Source: Escherichia coli
GTDB lineage: Bacteria > Pseudomonadota > Gammaproteobacteria > Enterobacterales > Enterobacteriaceae
Strand: one strand, 5' to 3'
NCBI GenBank assembly: GCA_029912145.1
Contig: GCA_029912145.1_4350.1
Length of the DNA: 44,747 nt
In this document: positions 9,180 to 36,949 of the stretch, one piece after another
Layout of the letters: the number at the start of each line of letters is the position of its first letter
Numbering within the stretch: the first letter of the stretch is position 1
Program-made: the position numbers and the translations under genes
The notes under the pieces: model-generated
The model's database searches: none
What the model was told of the DNA's origin: nothing
The model's input: only the letters and a program-made list of their open reading frames with translations

Positions 9180-9208
9180 ACTATAATAGCTAACTATTCA
9201 GGTGTCAA
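9180..9208 (-). promoter_or_regulatory. Sigma70-like promoter, leftward: -35 TTGACA, 17 bp spacer, -10 TATAGT, dyad AATAG-CTAA-CTATT in the spacer
   Basis: Read directly; overlaps the 3-prime end of the 9194-9427 gene. Confidence 0.5.
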
Positions 9209-12072: not shown

Positions 12073-12102
12073 ACTATAATAGCGAACTATTCATGATGTC
12101 AA
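12073..12102 (-). promoter_or_regulatory. Sigma70-like leftward promoter: -35 TTGACA, 18 bp spacer, -10 TATAGT, dyad AATAG-CGAA-CTATT in the spacer
   Basis: Read directly in the divergent intergenic region 12045-12166. Confidence 0.55.
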
Positions 12103-12106
12103 TGGG

Positions 12107-12135
12107 CTTTTCTAAAATAATTAATATGGTACTAT
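12107..12135 (+). promoter_or_regulatory. Candidate rightward promoter for the HTH gene: -10 TACTAT preceded by AATAT-GGTA-CTATT half-dyad, weak -35
   Basis: Back-to-back with the leftward promoter; -35 is poor, suggesting regulated expression. Confidence 0.35.
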
Positions 12136-12166
12136 TCACACATCAACTGACTAAGGAGTAATTGAC

Positions 12167-15149: not shown

Positions 15150-15349
15150 TTCACGTTCTCCTTAATCCACGCTTCCACTTTCTCCGGGTCGAACGTACCG
15201 GGCTGCCGGCGACCCATAATGCGGATACAACAATCAGGGAACCTCCCACTCTTTAACCAGTTATTAAGCGTGCGGCGAGTAACCCCGATACGCTCAGCTA
15301 CTTCATTCTGTGTCATTCTCAAACCCTCATTATCAGTTAACGAAACCAA
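15146..15349 (-). CDS. Helix-turn-helix DNA-binding protein (AlpA/excisionase-like or MerR-like)
   Basis: HTH segment EVAERIGVTRRTLNNWLKSG; true start may be the internal Met (about 15316). Confidence 0.6.
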   Translation of the reverse strand: MVSLTDNEGLRMTQNEVAERIGVTRRTLNNWLKSGRFPDCCIRIMGRRQPGTFDPEKVEAWIKENVK

Positions 15350-15752
15350 GTATACATTGCGAATAATGGGAAATCAAACATAATCGCACCTATTGACATT
15401 ATGAAAATCTTCGTTTAAGGTGCTTCTATATCTTAGTTACTTTGATTCCTGTTCACCTTGTAATACCCGCTTGAAACGCAGCGGCGCCAAAGCGCCAGCG
15501 AAGTGTTAAGCGGCAGATTACTGAACATAAGAATTACCGTAACTTTCCTTCCGTAGTATCTCTGGTTGCCCTGGGCAAGTTCTATTCTCATCGGCAGCAT
15601 ATCTCTTAAGTATATGATAATTAAAAGTTTCTATAGTTGCCGTGAGCAATGTTGAGAGTACTTCACTCCGCTGGGGTGGGCTAACGCCCACCCACTGCGT
15701 TGCGTACTCTTTTAAGAAACGAAAGAATCACAGCGGCAACGTAACTATTCTC

Positions 15753-15781
15753 TTGCACACCCCAACATAATAGGGTACTAT
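15753..15781 (+). promoter_or_regulatory. Early-type promoter: -35 TTGCAC, 17 bp spacer, -10 TACTAT(TCA), with dyad AATAG-GGTA-CTATT
   Basis: Read directly, about 30 bp upstream of the first rightward gene. Confidence 0.6.
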
Positions 15782-15815
15782 TCACTTATCGAAACGAGAC
15801 AGAGGAGTGAGGGTT

Positions 15816-16864: not shown

Positions 16865-16893
16865 TTGCACACTAAGATAGAATAGGCTACTAT
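16865..16893 (+). promoter_or_regulatory. Early-type promoter: -35 TTGCAC, 17 bp spacer, -10 TACTAT(TCA), dyad AATAG-GCTA-CTATT
   Basis: Same architecture as the 15753 site; follows the terminator. Confidence 0.6.
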
Positions 16894-17226
16894 TCATTTA
16901 CACAAACTAGAGGAGAGACAGAGGATGAAAGATTATAGCGAAGTGACTTTAGGCGAGTTGCAGGACGAGTATGAAGATATGCTCTACCCGTTCATCTGCG
17001 ACGGAGATTACAACGGCGTCTATAACGGAGTGAGTGAAGAATATGAATACTAAAAACGAGCATTTGATTAAAGTTACCCCGGTATGGTCGGCGTGGGTTA
17101 TCGCCCCGACGGAAAGCACGTACCGAAATTTGTGTTCACTGATGAGAAAGTTGCGCGTGAGTGGCTTCGTGCAGGCAAGAAAGGTGAACGCGGCGTCATG
17201 AAGGTTGGGTTAGTAGGAGACGTAGT

Positions 17227-21969: not shown

Positions 21970-21992
21970 AGCCCTCTACGGAGGGCTTTTCT
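21970..21992 (+). terminator. Rho-independent terminator (AGCCCTC-TACG-GAGGGCT followed by TTTCT)
   Basis: Stem-loop plus T tract, read directly. Confidence 0.6.
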
Positions 21993-22027
21993 GTACATCC
22001 CGCCCAATCCCCTTATATAATCTATTT

Positions 22028-22046
22028 AGACGCGTAGGGCGCGTCT
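22028..22046. repeat. Inverted repeat AGACGCG-TAGGG-CGCGTCT upstream of the terminase small subunit gene; a third AGACGC copy lies near 22064
   Basis: Read directly; preceded by a TATATAAT -10-like element near 22014-22021. Confidence 0.5.
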
Positions 22047-22086
22047 GGTGCGCTCTGATGGTCAGACGCATATGCAAGGGGATTCT

Positions 22087-25364: not shown

Positions 25365-25385
25365 AGCCCCGAAAGGGGCTTTCTT
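25365..25385 (+). terminator. Rho-independent terminator after the portal gene (AGCCCC-GAAA-GGGGCT followed by TTCTT)
   Basis: Read directly. Confidence 0.55.
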
Positions 25386-25423
25386 ATAGTATGCTATTAA
25401 CTTTAACGCCACAGGGTTTATCT

Positions 25424-26467
25424 ATGAGCTTACTTACATCATTAATCAGCCACCAGATATGGTTGCAACGCACCGCATCCGGTGAGGTGAAAGACCTCGC
25501 GCCGTTCATTCAGGAAATGCGGGACGAAATCAAACGGCAGGTGCTGTTATTCGGTGACGACGGGCGTAGCACCGCGCGACTGAATAAACTGTTACGCGAC
25601 CTTGAAGAAGCACTGGTGGGGCTTACGGGCGACTGGCAGACAAAGCTGACAGAAGACCTTAAGGAACTGGCGGCGTATGAGGCCGAGTGGAACGTAAAGA
25701 CACTGACCGCCAACGTAGCTGCGGAATTTGTTACACCTACCGCTGAACAGGTGTGGGCTGCTGCCGAGTTTCAACCGTTATCGTTGAGCGACAAGCCTGT
25801 TGACTTCACTAAGCTGATGTCAGGTTGGGGTGAAACCGAAGTCGCGCGCCTGGTAACGGGTGTTAAGATGGGCTTTGTTCAGGGTAAGACAACACGGCAG
25901 ATTGTTACAGAAGTAGTCGGTAAAGGCGGGCTGGCTGACGTATCAGAGAAATACGCCGCTACCGTAATCCGCACTGCGCTGTCTCACGTGTCCAACGAAG
26001 CCCGCAATGAAACATACCGCCAGAACGACGATATCATCGAGAAGTACGAATGGGTGTCAACGCTGGACAGCCGTACCAGTACGATTTGCAGGGCCAGAGA
26101 CGGGATGATGTGGGAAATCGGTAAAGGGCCAATGCCGCCAGCCCATCCGAATTGTCGGTCGTGCACAGCTCCGGTAATCAGTTCAGAGTTCGACTTCCTC
26201 GATAAAGGCGCAAAACGGGCGGCTAAGGGTGCAGATGGCGGTACTCAGGTAAACGCGGACACCACTTATTACGAGTTTCTGAAACAACAACCGGCGTGGT
26301 TTCAGGACCAGGCGCTCGGCCCGGTGCGAGGTAAGATTTTCCGTAACAGCGGTATATCGCCGGAAGAGTTTCGCGTAATATCTGTAGATGGTTTCGGGAA
26401 TCCGCTCACGCTTAAGCAGATGGCGGAACTCGATAAACGTGTTGCTGATTATCTGAAAGGGGATTAA
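25424..26467 (+). CDS. Head morphogenesis protein (Mu gpF / SPP1 gp7-like)
   Basis: HPNCRSCTAPV motif typical of the gp7/MuF family; follows the portal gene. Confidence 0.8.
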   Translation: MSLLTSLISHQIWLQRTASGEVKDLAPFIQEMRDEIKRQVLLFGDDGRSTARLNKLLRDLEEALVGLTGDWQTKLTEDLKELAAYEAEWNVKTLTANVAAEFVTPTAEQVWAAAEFQPLSLSDKPVDFTKLMSGWGETEVARLVTGVKMGFVQGKTTRQIVTEVVGKGGLADVSEKYAATVIRTALSHVSNEARNETYRQNDDIIEKYEWVSTLDSRTSTICRARDGMMWEIGKGPMPPAHPNCRSCTAPVISSEFDFLDKGAKRAAKGADGGTQVNADTTYYEFLKQQPAWFQDQALGPVRGKIFRNSGISPEEFRVISVDGFGNPLTLKQMAELDKRVADYLKGD

Positions 26468-26469
26468 CG

Positions 26470-26928
26470 ATGGGCTTTTTCAAAGTAACTGATGTACCGT
26501 CGCGCCGTGTAGTCCAGTACGCCCGAGTGTCTGGCTCTGGCGAGAACGTGGTGTTTATTAGGGATGAAAGTGTACTCGGTACACCAGTAGACGATATGCC
26601 GTTTGCGGATAAGACTGGCATCGCACTTCCTGCGGCGGGCATGCTTTACGAGATTCCGTATCTGGCTGATGCTGGCGACGTGTATTTCTCTGCACAACCA
26701 CAGGACGCTGAACTGGCAGACGGCAGCGCAACTATCACTGTAGAGGTTAAAGCCGGTAAAGCACCATATGCTCTGACCTGGTACAAAGACGGCAAGGAAG
26801 TGGTAAATGCGCCCGAAGAGGCTTTGTCTCTGACGGTTAACGCAGTTGGTGAATACTTCGTTAAGGTTACTGATGCCGATAGGGTAGAGGCTGTGAGTAA
26901 AGCGGCGAAGGTCACTAAGCCCGAATGA
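26470..26928 (+). CDS. Head-associated protein with C-terminal Ig-like domain (152 aa)
   Basis: C-terminal PYALTWYKDGKEV...GEYFVKVTD resembles Ig-like domains; shares this with the 30320-30661 gene. Confidence 0.5.
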   Translation: MGFFKVTDVPSRRVVQYARVSGSGENVVFIRDESVLGTPVDDMPFADKTGIALPAAGMLYEIPYLADAGDVYFSAQPQDAELADGSATITVEVKAGKAPYALTWYKDGKEVVNAPEEALSLTVNAVGEYFVKVTDADRVEAVSKAAKVTKPE

Positions 26929-26932
26929 TAGA

Positions 26933-26961
26933 AGGCCCCTTTAAGGGGCCTTAGTTTATTT
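26933..26961. terminator. Terminator hairpin between convergent genes (AGGCCCC-TTTA-AGGGGCCT followed by a T-rich tract)
   Basis: Read directly. Confidence 0.55.
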
Positions 26962-27240
26962 CTTTCCTAATGCTTTCTCGATTGCTCTTTTTGCCAGATT
27001 TAATGGATGGTCCTCATGGTAATCATCGGAAGATACCGCGCAAACATCCTCGACGTAATCGCGAAGCTGGCGAAGTGCTTCAAGTAACTCTGGTGCAGAG
27101 GAAATAAGCTTTGCGTTAGCCAATTTTACTGAGTCATTTTCCCTCATACTCATTACCTCCGCCACATAAACATCACCCGCCCAGATAGCCGTTTCGCAAT
27201 TAACCCATGTACCGTCTGTACCTTTAAATTTGTGTGTCAT
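26956..27240 (-). CDS. Antisense moron gene, hypothetical protein (94 aa)
   Basis: ATG at 27240 with RBS AGGAG; own TTGCAC-type promoter upstream and terminator downstream; opposite strand to the surrounding head genes. Confidence 0.6.
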   Translation of the reverse strand: MTHKFKGTDGTWVNCETAIWAGDVYVAEVMSMRENDSVKLANAKLISSAPELLEALRQLRDYVEDVCAVSSDDYHEDHPLNLAKRAIEKALGKK

Positions 27241-27267
27241 TTTGCATCTCCTGTTTAAGTTAACTGA

Positions 27268-27296
27268 ATAGTACCCTATTATATTGGTGTGTGCAA
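27268..27296 (-). promoter_or_regulatory. Early-type promoter on the minus strand: -35 TTGCAC, 17 bp spacer, -10 TACTAT(TCA), dyad AATAG-GGTA-CTATT
   Basis: Near-identical to the 15753 site. Confidence 0.6.
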
Positions 27297-27348
27297 ACTA
27301 TTTATTTACGTATTCCAGTTATTCCACTCAATTGTAAATGTTGGAATA

Positions 27349-27364
27349 AACTATTCGAATAGTT
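27349..27364. repeat. Perfect 16 bp palindrome AACTATTCGAATAGTT, abutting a TTGACT -35-like hexamer
   Basis: Read directly; built from the same GAATAG/CTATTC half-site as the promoter dyads. Confidence 0.6.
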
Positions 27365-27391
27365 GACTTTTCACTGAAAATGTGCTAAGCT
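27363..27391 (+). promoter_or_regulatory. Candidate promoter: -35 TTGACT, 17 bp spacer, extended -10 TGcTAAGCT
   Basis: Read directly; the -10 is only moderate. Confidence 0.4.
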
Positions 27392-27410
27392 CCACCTGAG
27401 CTTGTGAAGT

Positions 27411-27521
27411 ATGAACAAGCGACCGCGGCGCGGGCAGGTAACGGAGCGGGACGTAAGTCCTGAGTGTAGTTACGCTGACGCGTTCGGAAGGGCCATACTC
27501 TATTGCTTGTGTAAAAAGTAA
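27411..27521 (+). CDS. Possible small basic peptide (36 aa, MNKRPRRGQV...), or part of a noncoding RNA; not in the ORF track
   Basis: ATG-initiated ORF between promoter and terminator; weak RBS. Confidence 0.2.
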   Translation: MNKRPRRGQVTERDVSPECSYADAFGRAILYCLCKK

Positions 27522-27571
27522 CTGGTTTACTGAGATTACGCCGTTTCTATGTTTAAATGATAAGGACTAGC

Positions 27572-27598
27572 GCCCCGCTTTATGGCGGGGCTTTACTT
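27572..27598 (+). terminator. Rho-independent terminator or attenuator immediately upstream of the Rz-like gene (GCCCCGC-TTTATG-GCGGGGC followed by TTTACTT)
   Basis: Read directly; ends about 10 nt before the Rz RBS. Confidence 0.55.
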
Positions 27599-27616
27599 AT
27601 CGAGAAAGGGGGAAAC

Positions 27617-28003
27617 ATGAATCTTAAAGCAACTGTCGTAGCAGGAGCATGTTTCATCATCCTGGCTTACGCCCACGGCATTTACCAGTATCGCAGCGGC
27701 TGGAGCGAAGGCCGGGCGAATCTCGTTTCGCAGCAACAGCAGAAAGCGCAGGCTGAGTTAGCGAAGAAAACACAACGGCAGCAGCAGGACGAATCAAAGG
27801 CCGCCGCCGCTGACAACGAAGGCAAGACGAAATCAGAGGTGATTACCCGTGAAGTCGTTAAGTACATTAAAACGCCTGGTCGCAGCGTGTGCACTTTTGA
27901 CGATGCTCGCGTCCTGCTCAAGTCCCGCGCCGTCGCCAACGCCAATTCCATCTCCGGATACGACGATGATGCAGCCGCCGTGCAAGCTGGCGCCACCAAG
28001 TAG
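27617..28003 (+). CDS. Inner-membrane spanin (i-spanin, Rz-like)
   Basis: N-terminal transmembrane segment (ATVVAGACFIILAYA), Gln/Ala-rich coiled coil, periplasmic C-terminus; RBS AAGGGGGA. Confidence 0.7.
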   Translation: MNLKATVVAGACFIILAYAHGIYQYRSGWSEGRANLVSQQQQKAQAELAKKTQRQQQDESKAAAADNEGKTKSEVITREVVKYIKTPGRSVCTFDDARVLLKSRAVANANSISGYDDDAAAVQAGATK

Positions 28004-28112
28004 TGACGCGGACGAGGATTTAGCTATCGACGTTCAGAACGCCGAATGCGTACGGCAACTGAGACTGAAAGTGTTCATGTTGCAGGATTACGTGAGGAAT
28101 ATTCTGGAATAG
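27849..28112 (+). CDS. Outer-membrane lipoprotein spanin (o-spanin, Rz1-like), overlapping the 3-prime end of the i-spanin gene in the +1 frame
   Basis: Signal peptide with lipobox LASC followed by a Pro-rich mature region; overlapped architecture extending past the Rz stop. Confidence 0.65.
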   Translation: MKSLSTLKRLVAACALLTMLASCSSPAPSPTPIPSPDTTMMQPPCKLAPPSSDADEDLAIDVQNAECVRQLRLKVFMLQDYVRNILE

Positions 28113-28194
28113 TTGCCTTGCATGTTGGAATAATTTATTCTTGACATGTAAATCCGGGTGGCCCGGATTCCAACGTCCAGGGGACATACTGACT

Positions 28195-28896
28195 ATGAAT
28201 CGTTTTTTACGTTATCCGTTCCAGGAAGAAGCTGGAGCAGAAGATAAAGCTGGTGGCGGTGACGCTCCTAAAATGTTCACCGCTGAAGAAGTTCAGGCGC
28301 TGATTGAGAAAGAAGTTGCCGGGCTTAAGGCCAATCAGGAAGCATTGCTGGCGGAGAAGAAAGAAGCCGCCCGTAAAGCAAAAGAGGCCGAAGAAGAACG
28401 GCAGCGTGCGCACCAGGAGGCGTTAAAGGCCGCCGGTAAGATGGACGAGTTTGAAAAGACGATTCGTAGCCAGTATGACCCGGTGTTAGCCGAGAAAGAT
28501 GGCCGCATCTCCAAAATGGCAGAGCGCATCCTCGGCAGCGAACGTAAAGCGGTGCTAGGCTCTTTCGCGGGTGACTTTATTACCCCGGAAGCAGTGGACA
28601 TCCTTGCGCCGTTCGTTAAGACTGAGTTCGAAGGTGATGATGTGGTTACTAAGTTTGTCGGCGCAGACGGTAACGTAATCACGACTGACCCGGAACAGTT
28701 CCGCAAATACCTGCGCGAACACAAAGCGTTTTCGCATTTGATTAAAGCAAATGCAGCTTCCGGCGGCGGGGCTTCCGGTGGCAAAGGCGGCGGGGCCGCA
28801 CCAGTGTTTAAAGACATGAGTGAAGCAGAGCGTTTAGCCCTGTATAAATCGAACCCTGCCGAATTTGAACGGCAACTTAAAGCCCTGAGGAAATAA
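28195..28896 (+). CDS. Scaffolding protein (putative)
   Basis: Ala/Glu/Lys-rich coiled-coil sequence, directly upstream of the major capsid gene. Confidence 0.6.
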   Translation: MNRFLRYPFQEEAGAEDKAGGGDAPKMFTAEEVQALIEKEVAGLKANQEALLAEKKEAARKAKEAEEERQRAHQEALKAAGKMDEFEKTIRSQYDPVLAEKDGRISKMAERILGSERKAVLGSFAGDFITPEAVDILAPFVKTEFEGDDVVTKFVGADGNVITTDPEQFRKYLREHKAFSHLIKANAASGGGASGGKGGGAAPVFKDMSEAERLALYKSNPAEFERQLKALRK

Positions 28897-28898
28897 TA

Positions 28899-29954
28899 AT
28901 GGCAATTACCACTATCGGCGATATCGTAACTGGCAACATCCCGGTCCTGGCGTCTTATATGACCGAGGACCCGGTAGAAAAAACCGCGTTCTTCCAGTCT
29001 GGTATTCTCACCCCGACCCCATACGCCGCCGAGATTGCCCGCGGCCCGTCCAACGTCGCTAATATTCCTTTCTGGAAAGCGATTGATACCTCTATCGAGC
29101 CGAACTACTCGAACGACGTATACCAGGACATCGCCACCCCGCGTAACGTGCAGACCGGCGAGATGATGGCGCGCGTTGCGTACCTGAACGAAGGTTTCGG
29201 TCAGGCGGATTTGACCGTTGAACTGACCAGCCAGAACCCGCTGCAATCCGTAGCGTCACGTCTGGATAACTTCTGGCAGCGTCAGGCACAACGCCGTCTG
29301 ATTGCTACCGCGCTCGGGCTGTACAATGACAACGTAGCCGCTACCGACGCATACCACGAGCAGAAGGACATGGTAATCGACGTGTCTGCTACTCTGGGCT
29401 TCGATGCGGGCGCGTTCATCGACGCTACCCAGACTATGGGCGATGCTCTGATGGGCAACGGCGGTGAAGTGCTGGGGGCTATCGCGATGCATAGCTTCGT
29501 TTATGCGCAGGCACGTAAGCAGCAGCTTATCGACTTCATCCGTGACGCGGACAACAACACCATGTTCGCCACCTACCAGGGCTACCGCGTGATTGTTGAC
29601 GACAGCATGACCGTAGTCGGCACTGGCCCGACCCGTAAGTTCATCTCCATCATCTTCGGCAACGGCGCTATCGGTTACGGTGAAGGTTCTCCGTCCAACC
29701 CGCTGGAATACGAGCGCGAAGCGTCCCGCGGCAACGGCGGCGGCGTTGAAACCCTGTGGACCCGTAAGACCTGGTTGCTACATCCGTTTGGTTACAGCTT
29801 CACCAGTGCAGTAATCACTGGCAACGGCACCGAGACTACCCCGCGCTCTGCTTCCTGGCAGGACCTGGCGAACGCCTCCAACTGGAACCGTGTGGTTGAC
29901 CGCAAGCACGTACCGATTGCCTTCCTGGTAACTGGTGTCGGTGCTCAAGGTTAA
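28899..29954 (+). CDS. Major capsid protein
   Basis: 351 aa ORF after the scaffold gene, followed by a strong terminator; positional and compositional inference. Confidence 0.75.
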   Translation: MAITTIGDIVTGNIPVLASYMTEDPVEKTAFFQSGILTPTPYAAEIARGPSNVANIPFWKAIDTSIEPNYSNDVYQDIATPRNVQTGEMMARVAYLNEGFGQADLTVELTSQNPLQSVASRLDNFWQRQAQRRLIATALGLYNDNVAATDAYHEQKDMVIDVSATLGFDAGAFIDATQTMGDALMGNGGEVLGAIAMHSFVYAQARKQQLIDFIRDADNNTMFATYQGYRVIVDDSMTVVGTGPTRKFISIIFGNGAIGYGEGSPSNPLEYEREASRGNGGGVETLWTRKTWLLHPFGYSFTSAVITGNGTETTPRSASWQDLANASNWNRVVDRKHVPIAFLVTGVGAQG

Positions 29955-29964
29955 GCTATAATCG

Positions 29965-29992
29965 AGAGGGACTTCGGTCCCTCTTTTCATTT
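29965..29992 (+). terminator. Rho-independent terminator after the major capsid gene (AGAGGGA-CTTCGG-TCCCTCT followed by TTTCATTT)
   Basis: Read directly. Confidence 0.6.
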
Positions 29993-30007
29993 ACTAAGAG
30001 GTAAATT

Positions 30008-30232
30008 ATGGCTAAGACCGGAAAAGGCTTGCCGCGCAGCCTTCAGAATGTCGACTTCGGTGACTTTGATATCCCAGTCACGCCTGCTACTACCAGCGTA
30101 GTTGGTGGGGTTAGAAAGTCAGCTACTGTGGCTGCACCTGCGGCCATTACCGCCGCCGCCAGGGTGCCGTCCGCCGCGGCACCGACTACGGAAGAGTTCG
30201 GCGCCCTTGTAGCGGAGTACAACAAACTCTGA
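30008..30232 (+). CDS. Hypothetical Ala-rich head protein (74 aa)
   Basis: RBS AGAGG before ATG; the frame stays open for 24 codons beyond the TGA stop. Confidence 0.45.
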   Translation: MAKTGKGLPRSLQNVDFGDFDIPVTPATTSVVGGVRKSATVAAPAAITAAARVPSAAAPTTEEFGALVAEYNKL

Positions 30233-36771: not shown

Positions 36772-36813
36772 AACATAACTCCTGATTTGAGATAACATCG
36801 TTGGTGTAAGTGA

Positions 36814-36842
36814 ATAGTACGCTATTATATTGGGGAGTGCAA
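36814..36842 (-). promoter_or_regulatory. Early-type promoter on the minus strand driving the cassette: -35 TTGCAC, 17 bp spacer, -10 TACTAT(TCA), dyad AATAG-CGTA-CTATT
   Basis: Near-identical to the 15753, 16865 and 27296 sites. Confidence 0.6.
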
Positions 36843-36949
36843 GTAGTGTGCTAGAATAATTTTGCGCCTAGTGTCGCACACGAAAAGCGGGTGGTTCCCG
36901 TCTGGCGCATTTCCTTTAACCAGTAACCTCTTAACCAAAGGATTAAAGA

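Follow-up and report, generated by a model that had tools for sequence, protein, structure and literature searches.

In phage lambda, the late promoter pR' gives rise to an untranslated RNA of about 200 nucleotides (nt), the 6S RNA, and the hairpin terminator tR' stands directly before the lysis genes, with the head and tail genes after them. A −10-like element at the start of the transcript causes a sigma-dependent pause, and it is there that the antiterminator Q loads. In nut sites and in the boxA-boxB elements of rrn operons, a structured element lies beside a short conserved linear motif close to the promoter of a long operon, and more than one site per genome shares the motif. The put RNAs of phage HK022 comprise two stem-loops just downstream of a promoter, occur at two sites per genome and act in cis on RNA polymerase without a protein; nut sites likewise occur twice per genome just downstream of promoters, and putL has a −10-like element near the transcript start (PMC9378689). 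Here we analyse an interval of about 320 base pairs (bp; positions 27297-27616) in a stretch of 44,747 nt from the Escherichia coli assembly GCA_029912145.1 (the window), which is a near-complete genome of a Kagunavirus (Guernseyvirinae, family Sarkviridae). The interval, which precedes the spanin genes Rz and Rz1, is very probably the control region and untranslated leader of a transcription unit headed by these genes, with a promoter (27363-27391) below an array of half-sites and a transcription start near 27398. The predicted leader RNA is non-coding and about 200 nt long. Its 5' half has a conserved fold that two phage genera share and that no described family matches, and the role of the RNA most likely lies in late-gene transcription.

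How does this locus compare with the known systems? As in the late region of lambda, a promoter is followed by an untranslated RNA of about 200 nt and by a terminator-like hairpin directly before lysis genes, with head and tail genes beyond, and a −10-like hexamer recurs at the transcript start (TAAGCT..TGAGCT). It differs from lambda in that no Q-family protein was found and these phages are virulent, in that the U tract of the hairpin is missing in two of three genera, and in that RNA structure is the conserved part, whereas no conserved fold is known to be required of the 6S RNA. Like put, the structured domain of the leader begins 2-3 nt after the presumed start, and 41 of 181 records have a second copy, the other site in the window being occupied by a different RNA; put RNAs are about 70 nt long, however, whereas the leader domain has about 95-110 nt and consists of one short and one long stem. 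The pairing of a structured element with a short linear motif recalls nut and rrn sites, yet the forms of the motif (GCUCUAUU, GCUAUAUU and ACUCUAUU) are only loosely like boxA (GCUCUUUA), and no N-like protein was identified. The hairpin before Rz resembles the bulged hairpins of about 17-18 bp that serve as T7-type RNase III sites in untranslated regions, and its position just before the ribosome-binding site (RBS) is kept in three genera, but the stems are short for RNase III and the Kagunavirus hairpin also resembles an intrinsic terminator. The int-alpA RNA (RF02996) of the same genome is likewise a structured RNA that directly follows an extended −10 promoter and heads a unit; its fold and sequence are unlike those of the leader, which has no match to RF02996. 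Because no Q- or N-like protein and no homology to put were found, we read the likeness to put and nut as a possible way of working, not as membership of a family.

A leader RNA with a conserved fold

A first-pass annotation of the window had described the gap before the spanin genes as non-coding, had proposed a regulatory RNA transcribed from the promoter within it, and had suggested folding and covariance analysis across related phages as a check. The gap is indeed non-coding and more conserved than the flanking genes, and the comparison of related phages recovers a conserved fold with compensatory changes, so that both conservation and helix covariation support the regulatory RNA. The structured 5' domain, the half-site array, a minus-strand promoter and a second copy elsewhere, all described below, had been missed.

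The leader region is at least 90% identical in 181 phage records, and its identity to Escherichia phage fEg-Eco06 is 98.7%. Across 36 Kagunavirus loci compared in 60-nt windows, identity to the window is 98-99% over positions 27380-27560 and 85-95% in the flanking coding sequence, including the major capsid gene. This makes the interval the most conserved stretch within 4.5 kb, and the sole comparable peak is the next intergenic region (28070-28190); the scaffold-proximal intergenic region is about 99% identical among Kagunaviruses. Jerseyviruses, whose capsid protein is about 93% identical, carry a homologous, far diverged element at the equivalent place, and Kagunaviruses and Jerseyviruses together account for more than 450 phage records that hold it. 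The Cornellvirus leader retains the operator, the promoter and some RNA motifs (GCAUUCGG..CGGAAGGGUC) and is not recognised by the covariance model described below. Serratia phage ZDD2, the nearest phage outside the subfamily (capsid 43% identical), has neither Rz nor an intergenic gap at this position, and among the loci examined the RNA is confined to the Guernseyvirinae. When viral and metagenome contigs were scanned with loose patterns, most matches were due to chance, and those listed included no further homologues; a cluster of full-length matches of 15-21 bits in soil contigs proved to be copies of a single high-GC coding sequence. As to a host origin, there was no match to the RNA in 5,426 E. 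coli genomes. We found no description of this leader RNA in the literature.

The 5' domain is predicted to form a short hairpin, P1, and a long bulged rod, P2-P3-P4 (Table 1). A covariance model of this hand-drawn structure, R1, built from 14 Kagunavirus-type sequences, finds a single copy in the window (27392-27508, 142.7 bits) and recognises the Jerseyvirus copies with 38-44 bits (E of about 1e-7 to 1e-9). Near-invariant are the rod's base (ACCGCGG...UUCGG, which includes a bulged C and two G-U pairs), the tail AAGGGCC and the adjoining CUCUAUUG. In Jerseyviruses the conserved blocks are ACCGCGGYGCGG, ACGCRUUCGGAAGGGCC and YUAUUG, and the stretches between them are wholly different yet can form the same hairpins. 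In an alignment of 32 distinct sequences, which was fitted to R1 and hence favours the structure, standard pairs fill 95% of cells, compared with 31-44% when the partners are slid by 1-3 columns. Both sides have changed, in a compensatory manner, at 16 of the 28 pairs, and the covariation score is 0.28 vs. 0.09 in shuffles, with none of 500 shuffles reaching 0.28. The helices had first been seen in independent single-sequence folds, before the model-fitted alignment, and the minimum free energy (MFE) structure of positions 27398-27492 is the conserved fold, which makes up 43% of the ensemble (z = −3.15). Between genera P1 keeps its structure and not its sequence. The two G-U pairs in P2 are invariant and make sense only in an RNA read from the plus strand, so that they fix the strand. 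Loops are not conserved, internal loops vary between genera, and the conserved single-stranded stretches are short (7-8 nt).

Several other pairings were rejected. The MFE structure of the whole leader (z = −1.5) pairs the P1 loop with CAUACU, a pairing that is not conserved, and a long-range pairing of UUGCUU with Rz codons 4-6, suggested by RNAalifold, is broken without compensation in two relatives. An anti-terminator pairing of CGCCGU with the hairpin before Rz fails in the Jerseyvirus, and that of CGCCGU with the 5' strand of P2 is a weak 6-bp match. Known families do not account for the RNA either: a scan of the whole window with Rfam 15 at gathering thresholds returned only int-alpA at 36861, a scan of 27200-27700 at E values up to 10 gave matches at chance level (at most 17.5 bits, against thresholds of 35-75), and a permissive scan of the Jerseyvirus copy likewise returned no family. 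That the leader RNA is a real functional element is well supported.

Promoter and half-site array

The promoter read in the first-pass annotation, TTGACT-N17-TGcTAAGCT, is present where it had been placed and is conserved in three genera. A generic promoter scan did not call TTGACT-17-TAAGCT, the −10 of which matches at 3 of 6 positions. The −10 region reads TG-n-TA(A/C)(G/C)CT in the three genera, and because TG and TA...T are fixed and n is free (among Kagunaviruses it may be c, a or g), we assign the promoter to the extended −10 class; the −35 is TTGACT, TAGACT or TGGATT. Judging from these elements, transcription would start at about 27398. The −10-like hexamer at this position has an equivalent in Jerseyvirus (TACGCT-acc-TACGCT) and is absent in Cornellvirus; that it serves as a sigma-dependent pause element is speculative.

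Upstream of the promoter lies an array of GGAATA/TATTCC half-sites, which reads TATTCC-ag-TTATTCC...GGAATAA-ac-TATTC-GAATAG in Kagunaviruses, TTATTCC-ag-TTATTCC...GGAATAC-tt-TATTC in Jerseyviruses and TTATTCC...GGAATAA-a-TTATTCC in Cornellvirus. Nowhere in the window is GAATA/TATTC denser, per 60 nt, than from 27311 and from 28097 onward (five each; at most three elsewhere), and the array is probably the binding site of a regulator, for which the small helix-turn-helix, cro-like and NinH-like proteins are candidates. A perfect 16-bp palindrome at 27349-27364 (AACTATTCGAATAGTT) had been singled out before. It is present as described and forms the promoter-proximal end of the array, with its centre near −41.5 if the start is at 27398; it does not exceed chance (a genome as large as this one and of like composition should contain about 0.84 such palindromes, and there are two in the window) and it is not conserved in Jerseyvirus or Cornellvirus. 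A related element had also been reported ahead of the scaffold gene. The 12-mer ATGTTGGAATAA does occur exactly at 27338 and at 28122, the second copy being followed by TTGACA at 28141, but it is not conserved in Jerseyvirus, where the recurring feature ahead of scaffold is a cluster of TATTC/GAATA half-sites beside a TTGMCT −35. In the Jerseyvirus Ent2 the scaffold-proximal promoter TTGCCT-17-TATTCT is conserved.

The hairpin before Rz

The strong hairpin with a T tract seen in the first reading about 10 nt before the Rz RBS is confirmed in the window: the GC hairpin at 27572-27591 is followed by TTTACTTAT, and the Shine-Dalgarno sequence of Rz begins about 10 nt further on. A terminator scan calls it terminator-like (8 bp, 7 of them GC, with a U-rich 3' side, UUUACUUAU, at 27592-27598). 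It is contained within an extended hairpin (Table 1; z = −3.97), in which the U-rich tail is itself paired as part of the longer conserved stem. Hairpins of like build and position and of different sequence are found in Jerseyvirus (UAUACG/CGUAUA, among other pairs) and in Cornellvirus (GUAAUGGUG/CACUGUUAC), and one relative has a compensatory change in the GC stem (GCCCGAC/GUCGGGC). The U tract is found only in Kagunavirus; Jerseyvirus has UUAGCGUAU and Cornellvirus GUUACGAG in its place. The absence of the tract from two genera, together with the pairing of the tail, rules out termination as the conserved role of the hairpin. The proposal that a terminator gates read-through into the downstream genes may thus hold for Kagunaviruses, where partial termination is plausible from the sequence, and does not describe a conserved function. 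As no promoter fits between the hairpin and the Rz RBS, Rz and Rz1 must be read from the leader.

A second copy of the domain and a sister RNA

In 41 of the 181 Kagunavirus records, the promoter core and 5' domain (corresponding to 27363-27505) recur with 79-88% identity at a site in the early region, between a gene for an AlpA-like helix-turn-helix protein and an early promoter. The second copy exists in three sequence variants, each of which keeps P1, P2 and P4 by compensatory changes (C-G, U-A and A-U at one P2 pair). It has no half-site array. A compound hairpin with a UUUU tail lies downstream of it, ahead of an independent early promoter.

In the window, this early site (site 2) is occupied, as in the Jerseyviruses, by another non-coding locus with a similar promoter of its own (Table 1), and it is this cassette that the leader-type promoter and RNA domain have replaced in the 41 records. 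In 375 records this cassette is conserved and non-coding; Jerseyviruses are among them, with about 71% identity. Its RNA has a strong, rod-like predicted fold (z = −5.0), no match to R1 and none in a permissive Rfam scan. What the two RNAs have in common is a linear motif of 14-15 nt, GGGC(C)RAGCUMUAUU, which comes after a stem in both. A looser form of the motif has only these two matches in the window, and in the 42 kb of Ent2 GGGC(N0-2)RAGCTMTATT occurs exactly twice, once per RNA, and it is found in none of 100 shuffles. Co-variation of the C/A position of the motif between both RNAs of one genome was considered and rejected, since LDDK01 is discordant. We conclude that the leader RNA constitutes a new family, with a sister RNA at the early site, of a general kind (phage promoter-proximal leader or small RNA) that is known.

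The compound hairpin, at 15637-15745 in the window just upstream of the early promoter, is common to phages with either site-2 cassette. It has an outer stem GUUGCCGU/ACGGCAAC, an inner stem AGAGUAC/GUACUCU followed by UUUU, and an apical stem GGGGUGGGC/GCCCACCC, and is likely a terminator or insulator.

Genome setting and wider transcription layout

Terminase, portal, head-morphogenesis and decoration genes lie upstream of the interval, and Rz1, scaffold, capsid and head-tail genes lie downstream. Strong plus-strand terminators are found at 25365 (after portal), 26932 (after decoration), 29964 (after capsid; 29964-29985) and 34348 (end of the block). Because only 22 nt follow the capsid terminator, there is no room for a promoter before the next gene. 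Both the leader and site 2 point into long rightward gene blocks, each with a terminator-like hairpin downstream. The tail genes, a third rightward unit, are headed by an extended −10 promoter, TTGGGG-16-TGcTAGAAT, directly followed by the int-alpA RNA (36830-36925 in all), and this promoter stands back to back with a minus-strand copy (36807-36842) of a 36-nt promoter family. Near-identical copies of this family are listed in Table 1 and weaker ones occur at 12075-12138 and 9182-9201; they are presumably the early promoters of the phage. As read from these predictions, each rightward unit that follows a strand switch or strong terminator begins with a promoter-proximal structured RNA. TGTGCTAR was discarded as a late-promoter signature (3 matches vs. 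2.6 expected).

The immediate neighbours of the interval are Rz, an i-spanin gene (ATG at 27617), and an open reading frame (ORF) for 94 amino acids on the minus strand (26956-27240). The latter has its own early-type promoter, lies between the decoration gene and the leader, and resembles a moron. It is a rare insertion, present in about two of the related loci and absent from phage XY1 and from Jerseyviruses, and other phages have different minus-strand genes at its position. Pfam returned nothing for its fEg-Eco06 homologue, which is annotated there with 67 amino acids. A tRNA/tmRNA scan of the window found none. In Ent2, ARAGORN calls a minus-strand tRNA-Ser(tga) (2432-2510 of locus L002, corresponding to about 26905-27320 of the window) over the decoration-gene terminator and half-site array, which is a probable false positive; several GenBank records annotate a tRNA-Ser over the same region. 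Inteins vary within the group: the head-morphogenesis gene of fEg-Eco06 has one (L309, 8894-10831) that its counterpart in the window (25391-26467) lacks, and in Ent2 the genes for helicase and DNA polymerase contain inteins (L311, 25365-31522). The fEg-Eco06 protein annotated as an RNA polymerase inhibitor has no detectable sequence similarity to T7 Gp2 and was discarded as a relative.

Table 1. Features of the leader locus and of related loci in the window.
Feature	Position	Strand	Remarks
Half-site array, GGAATA/TATTCC	27311-27361		TATTCC 27311, TTATTCC 27319, GGAATAA 27343, TATTC 27352, GAATA 27357
Sigma-70 extended −10 promoter, TTGACT-N17(..TGc)-TAAGCT	27363-27391	+	Conserved in three genera
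−35 and −10 elements	27363-27368; 27386-27391	+	TTGACT; 17-nt spacer ending TGc; TAAGCT; from sequence
Second −10-like hexamer, TGAGCT	27397-27402	+	5 nt past −10; overlaps 5' arm of P1
Structured 5' RNA domain, about 95-110 nt	27398-27508	+	Covariance model, covariation, MFE
P1 hairpin	27400-27405 with 27415-27420	+	Starts 2-3 nt past presumed start
Bulged rod P2-P3-P4	about 27423-27487	+	Followed by invariant single-stranded tail AAGGGCC and motif CUCUAUUG
36-codon ORF	27411-27521	+	Not a gene
Linear motif GGGCCATACTCTATTG	27490-27505	+	Common with site-2 RNA, GGGCAAGTTCTATTC at 15573-15587
Extended hairpin, 17-18 bp	27559-27601	+	GAUAAG/CUUAUC, 3-nt bulge, UAG/UUA, 1-nt bulge, 8-bp GC stem 27572-27591
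Rz (i-spanin), RBS and ORF	27603-28003	+	Annotation of near-identical phages; first gene behind leader
Rz1	Embedded downstream of Rz start; end 28112	+	Annotation of near-identical phages
Second half-site cluster (GGAATATTCTGGAATAG) with promoter	28097-28169	+	TTGCCT 28113-28118, 17-nt spacer, TATTCT 28136-28141; ahead of scaffold gene
Scaffold 5' untranslated hairpin AAUCCGGG/CCCGGAUU	28151-28169	+	Compensatory changes in Ent2
Minus-strand promoter	27261-27296	−	TTGCAC (27296-27291), 17-nt spacer, TACTAT (27273-27268); drives divergent 94-amino-acid ORF
Site-2 non-coding locus	15317-15750	+	TTGACA-17-TAAGGT (15394-15422) and about 300 nt non-coding
36-nt promoter family, TTGCAC-N17-TACTAT, internal ATAATAGGGTACTATTCA	15753-15788; 16865-16900; 27261-27296; 36807-36842	+; +; −; −	Near-identical copies
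int-alpA RNA (Rfam RF02996)	36861-36925		36.6 bits, just above threshold

Possible functions of the leader RNA

What might the RNA do? Our preferred reading, to which we give a probability of roughly one in three, is a promoter-proximal RNA site with a nut- or put-like action, in cis, on the polymerase that transcribes it. Polymerase would start at about 27398 from the extended −10 promoter, under a presumed regulator at the half-site array, and the first 95-110 nt or so would fold at once into P1 and the rod. In Kagunaviruses, the U-rich 3' side of the hairpin probably stops some polymerases, so that an RNA of about 200 nt is freed, and the rest would read on into Rz and Rz1. The 5' domain and its linear motif would act on the very polymerase that made them, either unaided, like the put RNA of HK022, or, as nut and rrn boxB-boxA do, by recruiting factors of the phage or Nus-type factors of the host, and the modified complexes would pass the leader hairpin and the capsid terminator into the head-tail genes. 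We favour a role in cis because in two genera the RNA amounts to no more than the 5' end of the message for the operon, and because the helix base with its bulge and G-U pairs, the tail and the linear motif together resemble a binding site rather than a pairing seed or an element that only stabilises. The module can moreover take the place, along with its promoter, of a motif-sharing RNA that heads another long operon, and the operons contain terminators that need to be passed.

Several observations weigh against this reading. In Jerseyvirus and Cornellvirus the leader hairpin has no U tract, so that there is nothing to antiterminate at that point, and within Kagunaviruses high conservation extends to the leader's 3' half, which a site for polymerase loading alone would not account for. 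Inside the terminase-portal unit there is a terminator (25365), yet the unit's own promoter (TGTACA-18-TATAAT) is followed only by a plain hairpin, AGACGCGTAGGGCGCGTCT (21992-22048; hairpin 22030-22048), and the scaffold gene seems to have a promoter of its own, from which polymerase would lack the RNA. With filters off, R1 gave at best 5.1 bits (E = 1.3) on the HK022 immunity region between IS903 and gene O (27600-30100). The match of the leader motif to boxA (GCUCUAUU vs. GCUCUUUA) is weak, at about 6 of 8 positions. No Q-family antiterminator is annotated in two near-identical genomes, and a Pfam search of 20 small proteins found nothing Q-like or N-like, only NinH-like, DUF2737 and DUF551 matches; N-like proteins usually go undetected in Pfam scans. 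The K1B4 transcriptome paper, the sole Kagunavirus RNA sequencing paper, has gene-level resolution only.

Among the alternatives, a stand-alone gene for a trans-acting small RNA (sRNA) fares best, and we consider it doubtful, though a serious rival. The product would be a stable RNA of about 200 nt, whose 3' end arises by termination in Kagunaviruses and elsewhere by processing; it would have targets in the host or the phage, or else titrate a protein, and any read-through into Rz would be incidental or secondary. This would fit a discrete unit of typical sRNA size with a promoter and a terminator-like hairpin, conserved over its whole length and not just in the 5' domain. It would also fit the duplication of the RNA together with its promoter, since the second copy ends in the UUUU-tailed compound hairpin before an independent promoter, at an early site that resembles an RNA-gene locus with alternative cassettes. 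In two of the three genera, however, the missing U tract makes the RNA the 5' untranslated region (UTR) of Rz unless it is processed, and the hairpin and RBS leave no space for another Rz promoter. The loops of the RNA are unconserved, its conserved single strands have just 7-8 nt, extended complementarity to E. coli genomes is absent, and that within the phage genome is limited to 10-13-mers at chance level.

Unlikely, though also a serious rival, is a leader that serves mainly in messenger processing or stability, with P1 protecting the 5' end and with the rod and the pre-Rz hairpin as RNase III-type sites like those that separate early genes in T7; cleavage at these would detach a stable leader fragment from the message for Rz and determine the half-life or translation of Rz/Rz1. 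The close spacing of P1 to the presumed 5' end, with structure but not sequence kept between genera, would suit such a role, as would the pre-Rz hairpin, a bulged stem of 17-18 bp in three genera with wholly different lower-stem sequences, and the hairpins directly after other promoters (22030-22048 and 28151-28169). Stability elements do not need a near-invariant P2 base, an AAGGGCC tail or a shared motif, however, and the second copy is not adjacent to Rz. The UUGCUU pairing that would tie the leader to Rz codons is the one broken in two relatives, and RNase III cleavage is not predictable from sequence.

A riboswitch-like or condition-sensing attenuator, with the 5' domain as sensor and the U-tailed hairpin as expression platform gating the late genes, is very unlikely. 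The domain is joined to different downstream sequences in its two copies and has a terminator-like hairpin downstream in Kagunaviruses, as such a switch would. There is, however, no conserved alternative pairing of the P2 3' strand with the hairpin, from which the domain is 65-90 nt distant; two genera lack the U tract, internal loops differ between genera, and the RNA belongs to one phage subfamily, without an Rfam match or further homologues among the matches listed.

The 36-codon ORF, for which the first-pass annotation had considered a leader peptide, has a negligible chance of controlling read-through by translation-coupled attenuation: the ORF and its weak RBS are there as described, and several records annotate it as a hypothetical protein, but indels of 1 nt break the frame in four close relatives, its ATG sits in the P1 loop and is missing from Jerseyvirus (which has no such ORF) and from the third variant of the second copy, and substitutions track base-pairing and not codons.

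Implications

In many records, the annotation of the 36-codon hypothetical protein should be dropped and the region treated as a non-coding RNA or 5' UTR. More broadly, and in our view rather improbably, the Guernseyvirinae may run their rightward blocks by an RNA-based processive antitermination of their own, in which the blocks begin with the site-2 RNA or its replacement copy, the spanin leader and the int-alpA RNA, and the first two recruit the same factor through the shared motif. If true, a system resembling nut or put would exist beyond the lambdoid phages, composed of undescribed RNA families, and the orphan int-alpA RNA would gain a function. When phages are isolated for therapy or biocontrol against E. 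coli and Salmonella, Kagunaviruses and Jerseyviruses are among those obtained most often. They are virulent siphophages that rely on the host RNA polymerase, and the element offers a handle on how they time their late genes without a polymerase of their own or a known antiterminator. If RNA polymerase is what the RNA acts on, RNA-mediated antitermination would reach further than the lambdoid phages; if it acts in trans, it would be a widespread phage sRNA.

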